Shown here: piece by piece, positions 24,236 to 24,293 of the stretch
Position numbering within the stretch: position 1 is the first letter of the stretch
Layout: the number at the start of each line of letters is the position of its first letter
Source of the DNA: Shigella phage sb2
Length of the DNA stretch: 64,000 nt
Sequence record: PQ666540
Reading direction: 5' to 3' (one strand)
Position numbers and translations under genes: made by a program
The notes under the pieces: generated by a model
Told to the model about the DNA's origin: nothing
What the model saw: only the letters and a program-made list of their open reading frames with translations
The model's database searches: none

Positions 24236-24263
24236 AACAATCTCCTCATTTAACCGACAAGAC

Positions 24264-24293
24264 TACTATACCATAGTCTTGTCAGCTTGTAAA
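24264..24293 (-). promoter_or_regulatory. T4-type early promoter
   Basis: GTTTAC (24288-24293), TGgTATAGT (24264-24272) bracketed by 9-bp inverted repeat gacaagact/agtcttgtc. Confidence 0.6.

Follow-up and report, generated by a model that had tools for sequence, protein, structure and literature searches.

What does a perfect inverted repeat do around the -10 box of a strong early promoter in a T4-like phage, and does it act as duplex DNA, as single-stranded DNA or as RNA? The question arises in the short gap between gene 41 and dmd in the stretch of Shigella phage sb2 DNA analysed here at its full length of 64 kb (the window), which comes from a Tequatrovirus, a relative of T4, and whose genes discussed below lie on the minus strand. 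Over 301 bases around the dmd repeat, identity is 100% to Shigella phage sb3 and 97% to T4, and this region matches ~500 Tequatrovirus records. The dmd gene comes next after core gene 41, and is annotated downstream of that helicase gene in related records; motB, where a second such repeat lies, is annotated in T4 and follows motB.1 in related records, so that the names given to both genes in the initial annotation are correct by the annotation of related records and of T4. A scan of the whole 64-kb window at Rfam gathering thresholds returned no family matches.

Stem-loops at the dmd and motB promoters

The initial annotation had described perfect 9-bp repeats flanking the dmd -10, and these are present as a subset of arms that in fact run to 10 nt. 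Read along the minus strand, the gene 41 stop codon TAG (24296-24294) adjoins the -35 hexamer TTTACA (24293-24288), which is followed by aGCT-GACAAGACTA-TGGTATAG-TAGTCTTGTC-GGTT, by the Shine-Dalgarno sequence GAGGAG (24242-24247) and by the ATG (24233-24235). The promoter, TTTACA-17-TATAGT with an upstream TG, has 10/12 matches and is of the strong sigma-70/T4-early type. A repeat search places the 5′ arm GACAAGACTA at 24274-24283, within the promoter spacer, and the 3′ arm TAGTCTTGTC at 24256-24265; the arms are 100% complementary over 10 nt and lie 8 nt apart. The 8-nt loop TGGTATAG (24266-24273) is occupied by the extended -10, TGgTATAGT (24265-24273), except for its last T at 24265, which is the first base of the 3′ arm. 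As RNA, the arms extend to AGCUGACAAGACUAU (24273-24287) and GUAGUCUUGUCGGUU (24252-24266), and the hairpin has a minimum free energy of -21.7 kcal/mol (z = -5.5 against shuffles). Neither the Shine-Dalgarno sequence nor the AUG falls within the extended stem, which stops 4 nt short of the former and 16 nt short of the latter, and the ribosome-binding site is open in the predicted fold.

Slightly upstream, in the 3′ end of gene 41 (~24298-24322, minus strand), a MotA-box-like GATGCTTTG is followed after 10 nt by TAAAAT. The usual spacing between a MotA box and its -10 is 11-13 nt, and we set aside a MotA-dependent middle promoter 5′ of the dmd stem on this gap, which is one nucleotide short; if GATGCTTTG and TAAAAT did drive middle transcription, the dmd hairpin would lie close to the 5′ end of the resulting RNA.

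The pair gggacca/tggtccc, reported in the same annotation around the -10 of motB, was confirmed by the repeat search as perfect 7-nt arms, 100% complementary and 8 nt apart. Here the -35 hexamer TTTACA (12357-12362, minus strand) lies directly 3′ of the motB.1 stop codon, and the promoter, TTTACA-17-TATAAT with 11/12 matches, is again of the strong sigma-70/T4-early type. The 5′ arm GGGACCA (12343-12349), which as RNA extends to ACUCUUGGGACCA, and the 3′ arm TGGTCCC (12328-12334) enclose the 8-nt loop GAGTATAA (12335-12342), which contains all but the last base of the -10 hexamer TATAAT (12334-12339). The RNA hairpin has a minimum free energy of -19.7 kcal/mol (z = -4.4 against shuffles), and its extended stem stops over 20 nt short of the real Shine-Dalgarno sequence, leaving the ribosome-binding site open in the predicted fold. 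The two elements share one register, with the loop at positions 22-29 counted from the G of GTTTAC, the first five -10 bases inside it and the last T of the hexamer opening the 3′ arm. They also share one intergenic layout, the -35 adjoining the stop codon of the upstream gene and the next Shine-Dalgarno sequence and ATG lying within 25-45 nt.

Related elements, enrichment and covariation

Several other early promoters of the window carry elements of the same kind. A paralogue of the dmd element lies 5′ of a 34-aa mobD.2-like ORF (59099-59140, minus strand, with the -35 at 59135-59140) and has a counterpart in T4; its RNA stem of 15 bp, AGUUGGCAAGGUUAU / GUAAUCUUGUCAACU, has the loop and register of dmd, and the two promoters, 35 kb apart, share 39 nt at 92% identity. 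At the promoter after dexA, that of motB.2 (13426-13467, minus strand; hereafter 13467), a 10-bp stem TAGTTGTGGT / ACCATAGCTA brackets the -10, and as RNA it extends to CCUCGGU...ACUGAGG and takes in the motB.2 Shine-Dalgarno sequence. An early promoter at 54571-54624 (minus strand; hereafter 54624) has a 15-bp stem, CTGTTCCTCTGTGGT / ACTACGGAGGAACAG, with the -10 in its 15-nt loop and a 3′ arm that covers the Shine-Dalgarno sequence, and a paralogue with identical arms, and likewise a 15-bp stem and a 15-nt loop holding the -10, lies at 3234-3287 (minus strand; hereafter 3287). Together with a fourth sibling 5′ of modB (18661, described below), 13467, 54624 and 3287 thus have a 3′ arm that runs over a Shine-Dalgarno sequence or an AUG.

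Some further features of these siblings deserve mention. The motB.2 element (13420-13467, minus strand) folds at -21.1 kcal/mol (z = -5.25) and is identical in sequence in T2. The elements at 54571-54624 and 3234-3287 are near-identical cassettes 51 kb apart, the first followed by an ORF of 175 aa (54040-54567) and the second by one of 37 aa starting near 3229; their RNA hairpins have energies of -26.3 and -23.2 kcal/mol (z = -6.4 and -5.1), and in both the Shine-Dalgarno sequence is predicted to be masked in read-through RNA and free in the promoter's own transcripts. In the element 5′ of modB (~18604-18661, minus strand), the -10 TATGAT of an early promoter begins a 14-bp stem, TATGATAGCTTCTG / CGGAGGCTATCATG, that takes in both the AUG and the Shine-Dalgarno sequence of the gene that follows (-20.4 kcal/mol, z = -4.2). 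Three more minus-strand promoters, 8287, 3793 and 51653, have hairpins within the spacer only, TACCACA-agga-TGTGGTA, in which the conserved tgtGGTA belonging to the extended -10 takes part. We rejected these as significant structures, since the two that were folded do no better than shuffles (z = -0.5 at 8287 and -1.6 at 3793); the promoter consensus itself probably gives rise to them.

To find one perfect inverted repeat of 10 bp in 64 kb is not in itself notable, the window holding 4 perfect repeats with stems of at least 10 bp and loops of 3-12 nt against ~1.5 in dinucleotide shuffles; what is non-random is the placement. Short perfect inverted repeats also exceed the dinucleotide shuffles in the window at large (72 vs 42 for 7-bp stems, 19 vs 12 for 8-bp stems and 11 vs ~4.5 for stems of at least 9 bp). 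The comparison of early promoters proposed in the initial annotation was made on 20 strong minus-strand promoters, defined by TTTAC[AT]-N17-TAnnnT with at least 4/6 matches to TATAAT. At least 8 contiguous pairs centred on the -10 (G.U allowed, loop 4-10 nt) occur at five of the 20, against 2.9% of random positions (binomial P = 2e-4), and with loops of up to 20 nt a stem of at least 8 bp, with the -10 in its loop, occurs at seven (null 8.4%, P = 9e-4) and a stem of 15 bp at four (null 0.08%, P = 2e-9), counts that are inflated by the two paralogous pairs (dmd/mobD.2 and 54624/3287), which leave about five independent families. The stems around early-promoter -10 boxes are not due to chance.

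The covariation set was drawn from selected GenBank phage records, and two pattern scans of IMG/VR gave only 5 and 9 loci. In an alignment of 12 dmd orthologues and two mobD.2 paralogues over the 15-bp stem, with G.U allowed, 99.5% of cells are paired, the sole break being one A.C mismatch in T6. Two pairs are compensatory, C-G to U-A, between dmd and the mobD.2 paralogues, and six show one-sided changes that leave them paired (G-C, G.U and A-U interchanging); much of the conservation at dmd itself is shared ancestry, as the dmd relatives are 90-100% identical. At motB, the Tequatrovirus arms GGGACCA / TGGTCCC correspond in Dhakavirus to GAGAGCCAT / ATGGCTCTC in exactly the same register to the -10, with 4/8 pairs compensatory between the two genera. 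Across 7 distinct Tequatrovirus and Dhakavirus variants, 55/55 cells of this stem are paired, against 33-46% in slid controls, and MX01, vB_Eco_EL and CUA3 each have one added G.U pair. Beyond the compensatory changes, the remaining ones mostly give G.U pairs on the sense strand. At the motB locus of Mosigvirus PhAPEC2 the bracketing stem is absent.

An IMG/VR pattern that fixed promoter bases only and left the arms free, GTTTACAAG-N11-ATGGTATAGTA, matched three sequence families, all with stems of 10-12 bp and one with unrelated arms, GTGTAGGAGTA / TACTTCTACAC. Promoters upstream of cef, in one Marfavirus and one Kanagawavirus, have the same layout. Symmetry in relatives, the lack of which the initial annotation had named as part of a refuting outcome, is therefore conserved with covariation, and, as judged from these alignments, pairing is under selection at motB and at dmd/mobD.2. 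The inverted repeats at these early promoters are real and selected, and the class of element to which they belong is already known.

Two records show breaks in homology around motB. T2 (PV958097, 100-345) is without motB.2 and motB.1 and has a 10-codon remnant ORF followed directly by the motB promoter, the deletion ending ~11 nt upstream of the motB -35, where homology to the window resumes. CUA3 (300-420) combines a Tequatrovirus-like upstream gene with a promoter stem of the Dhakavirus type, the switch lying at the -35.

Strand asymmetry and possible roles of the hairpin

The changes in the stems distinguish between the two strands. In 15/15 variants the sense RNA folds more stably than the antisense RNA, by a mean of 5.6 kcal/mol, the background difference between sense and antisense being -0.57 +/- 2.2 kcal/mol in random 36-mers of the window, and the sense folds of these 15 variants contain 33 G.U pairs vs 2 in the antisense folds. 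In many variants, among them most dmd relatives and the window's own mobD.2 copy, the palindrome is imperfect as duplex DNA (G.T / A.C), yet pairing is complete as sense-strand RNA. A structure of the sense strand is thus favoured, which would form in RNA or, with lower probability, in the non-template strand of the DNA.

Transcription from a sigma-70 promoter usually starts ~7 nt after the -10. On this geometry the start sites are predicted at ~24258 for dmd, inside the 3′ arm, and at ~12327 for motB; the 5′ arm lies in the spacer between -35 and -10, and the 3′ arm would span approximately -7 to +3, or to +7 with G.U pairs. As the 5′ arm is upstream of the predicted start site, the promoter's own mRNA should be unable to form the hairpin, and with the predicted start at or inside the 3′ arm, the hairpin is expected only in read-through RNA from upstream promoters. 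The literature searched offered nothing usable on T4 3′-end, start-site or terminator mapping.

We consider it probable that the dmd and motB elements are cassettes of the PeSL type, a repeated composite motif of a sigma-70-like early promoter and a stem-loop (Arbiol 2010, PMC2839356), and that their hairpin acts in read-through RNA to insulate neighbouring transcription units. Each cassette would comprise a strong sigma-70-type early promoter that adjoins the stop codon of the upstream gene and shares its sequence, interleaved, with an inverted repeat. Its own transcription would start at or inside the 3′ arm and yield an mRNA without the 5′ arm, unstructured there, and RNA from upstream promoters would contain both arms and fold into a hairpin of 13-15 bp and ~-20 kcal/mol, located 10-15 nt beyond the stop codon of the upstream gene. 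The hairpin would in this way be a mark specific to read-through RNA, and would insulate the transcription units on either side. Its putative effect would most likely be attenuation of read-through and/or provision of a nuclease-resistant 3′ end for the upstream message, and at siblings with the 3′ arm over the Shine-Dalgarno sequence the downstream ribosome-binding site would also be hidden in read-through RNA. It is plausible, from the RegB consensus, that RegB cleaves at the downstream GGAG and leaves the hairpin as a protective 3′ end. As a secondary, evolutionary effect, repeated units of promoter plus stem might serve as homology patches for recombination between distant loci. The relevance would be modest, and would concern the insulation of densely packed phage early genes and the recurrence of the cassette at recombination junctions.

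The initial annotation had offered three roles for the symmetry, an operator for a dimeric regulator, a structure affecting promoter use and one affecting RNA stability. The structural reading survives in so far as a nucleic-acid structure is indicated, with the qualification that the hairpin would be missing from the promoter's own transcript and confined to read-through RNA, and the working model shifts from a protein operator to an RNA hairpin of read-through transcripts only.

A hairpin or cruciform at the level of DNA, particularly in the non-template strand, which would modulate formation of the open complex by presenting the -10 in a loop, or offer a target for recombination or nucleases, is an unlikely alternative. 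The non-template strand has the sequence of the sense RNA, so the G.T bias fits it too, and G.T pairs are tolerated in single-stranded DNA. As a cruciform, however, a stem that is partly G.T-paired and closed by an 8-nt loop would be poor, and its extrusion would be hazardous, cruciforms being cut by T4 endonuclease VII. The structure would moreover pair T-7 of the -10, which sigma-70 needs flipped out, and the feature is found at only ~1/3 of the early promoters. In favour of a DNA target are the homology breaks that T2 and CUA3 show at the motB element or close to it, and also the speculation that the PeSL stem-loop is a target of recombination proteins, made in a study in which PeSL-mediated exchanges were shown (Arbiol 2010, PMC2839356).

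We would give as little weight to the proposal that the hairpin is a translational mask, such that dmd and motB are translated only from transcripts of their own promoters. The siblings 13467, 18661, 54624 and 3287 do cover a Shine-Dalgarno sequence or AUG, and there is a precedent in T4 gene e (lysozyme), whose early translation is inhibited by an RNA structure with a late promoter in its 5′ strand (PMC3014915). The dmd and motB stems, by contrast, leave the Shine-Dalgarno sequence uncovered, with folds that are open at both sites, which argues that masking is not the role of these two.

Also unlikely is a distinct insulation device, in which termination or pausing would proceed without a U-tract by way of ADP-ribosylated RNA polymerase or a phage factor, or in which a non-template DNA hairpin would tune the open complex. 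In either version the hairpin would be more than a passive 3′ structure, and the phage would be able to tell RNA made from the own promoter of a gene from RNA arriving from upstream.

A canonical Rho-independent terminator of gene 41 or motB.1, overlapping the next promoter by chance, would suit a position 10-15 nt after the upstream stop codon. A role as terminator or attenuator has been proposed for PeSL stem-loops, one of which cut lacZ expression as strongly as rrnB T1 (Arbiol 2010, PMC2839356). The stems in the window are, against this, only moderately G+C rich, and no U-tract followed any of the seven stems inspected: the sequence after the stem is UUAAAUGA at dmd, GUGGAGUA at motB and GCCAAGGA at mobD.2, with no T-run, and scanning the dmd and motB loci for terminators gave 0 sites. 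Stems that lack a U-tract are not canonical intrinsic terminators, and we hold this explanation to be very unlikely.

The operator proposed in the initial annotation, at which a dimeric phage or host regulator would bind the palindrome at the -10 to repress or activate early promoters, fares worse still. The centre of the repeat falls on the -10, a site at which protein binding would obstruct RNA polymerase, and the window's dmd copy is a perfect 10 + 10 bp palindrome. The arms GACAAGACTA, GGGACCA, TAGTTGTGGT, GTGTAGGAGTA, GAGAGCCAT and CTGTTCCTCTGTGGT, however, have no half-site in common, and arms that differ wholly from promoter to promoter argue against one shared operator. They also co-vary such that pairing is kept instead of sequence, and most dmd relatives and the mobD.2 copy are imperfect in duplex DNA and fully paired as sense RNA. 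A term search of a review of T4 prereplicative transcription gave no mention of dyad symmetry at early promoters. An operator is thus highly improbable.

That the repeats are chance palindromes or by-products of the promoter consensus deserves almost no credence, for although ~1.5 perfect 10-bp inverted repeats are expected per 64 kb, the conserved tgtGGTA of the T4 early consensus can pair with spacer bases, and the spacer-only hairpins 8287 and 3793 are not significant, chance does not account for the enrichment at promoters, the identical register, the compensatory changes and the unrelated arms in different families.

Comparison with known promoter-hairpin systems

Inverted repeats at phage early promoters are familiar from the virion RNA polymerase promoters of N4, which have stems of 5-7 bp and loops of 3 nt and are recognised as DNA hairpins. 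The window elements resemble these in having an inverted repeat at a phage early promoter, but they are ordinary -35/-10 sigma-70 promoters with variable stems. Hairpins that stabilise 3′ ends, examples being REP elements and those at the 3′ ends of processed mRNAs, block 3′-to-5′ exonucleases. The window hairpins are likewise intercistronic and without a U-tract, and could block exonucleases after read-through or endonucleolytic cleavage; they differ from REP elements, which are not embedded in promoters, in sitting within them. With Rho-independent terminators they share a stable RNA hairpin soon after a stop codon, and they depart from them in having no U-tract and, at dmd and motB, in giving a negative consensus scan.

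A closer parallel is found in the T4 hairpins of the gene e type, and the same masking of translation by a hairpin that contains a promoter occurs at soc, 49 and I-TevI of T4. Like these, the window elements have an embedded promoter whose own transcript would be without the 5′ arm, the hairpin forming in read-through RNA, and the siblings 13467, 18661, 54624 and 3287 further mask a Shine-Dalgarno sequence or AUG, but with early promoters. Unlike these, in which the promoters are late and the Shine-Dalgarno sequence or AUG is always covered, the dmd and motB elements have early promoters and a free ribosome-binding site.

The fullest likeness is to the PeSLs. Their stem-loop most often lies between the -35 and -10 or over the -10, with G-T pairs noted, and AT-rich analogues were noted at T4 early promoters (Arbiol 2010, PMC2839356). 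A later account describes PeSLs in the PST/T4 pair, whose promoter consensus is TTTACW-N17-TAYWAT, whose stems vary more and which are associated with indels; its running text names neither dmd nor motB (Comeau 2014, PMC4122927). The dmd and motB promoters are sigma-70-like with 17-bp spacing and match this consensus; both have a stable stem-loop over the -10, a described subclass and one of the two commonest layouts; and both lie in a short gap between an upstream stop codon and a downstream Shine-Dalgarno sequence and ATG. As with PeSLs, the motif recurs at several loci of the window (dmd/mobD.2, 54624/3287, and 7/20 early promoters), and its stems contain G-T pairs. The deletion in T2, the switch in CUA3 and the 39 nt shared by dmd and mobD.2 are consistent with the association of PeSLs with indels and exchanges. 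PeSLs are also located preferentially in hyperplastic regions, but dmd follows the core gene 41.

There are also differences. The window stems are mixed or AT-rich, unlike the polyG/polyC stems of the RB49 and phi1 PeSLs, and they overlap the -10, unlike the PST stems, which a figure legend places 'just upstream' of the promoter (Comeau 2014, PMC4122927). The one stem assayed with lacZ, which is the only functional test in the literature, is G/C-rich and comes from phage phi1, not from a T-even phage (Arbiol 2010, PMC2839356), so that terminator activity is shown for a single phi1 PeSL stem only, and the window stems are without U-tracts. To this known class the present analysis adds, for the T-even elements only, formal covariation, the asymmetry in favour of the sense strand, the lack of a U-tract, and a continuum with siblings in which the same kind of stem masks the Shine-Dalgarno sequence.
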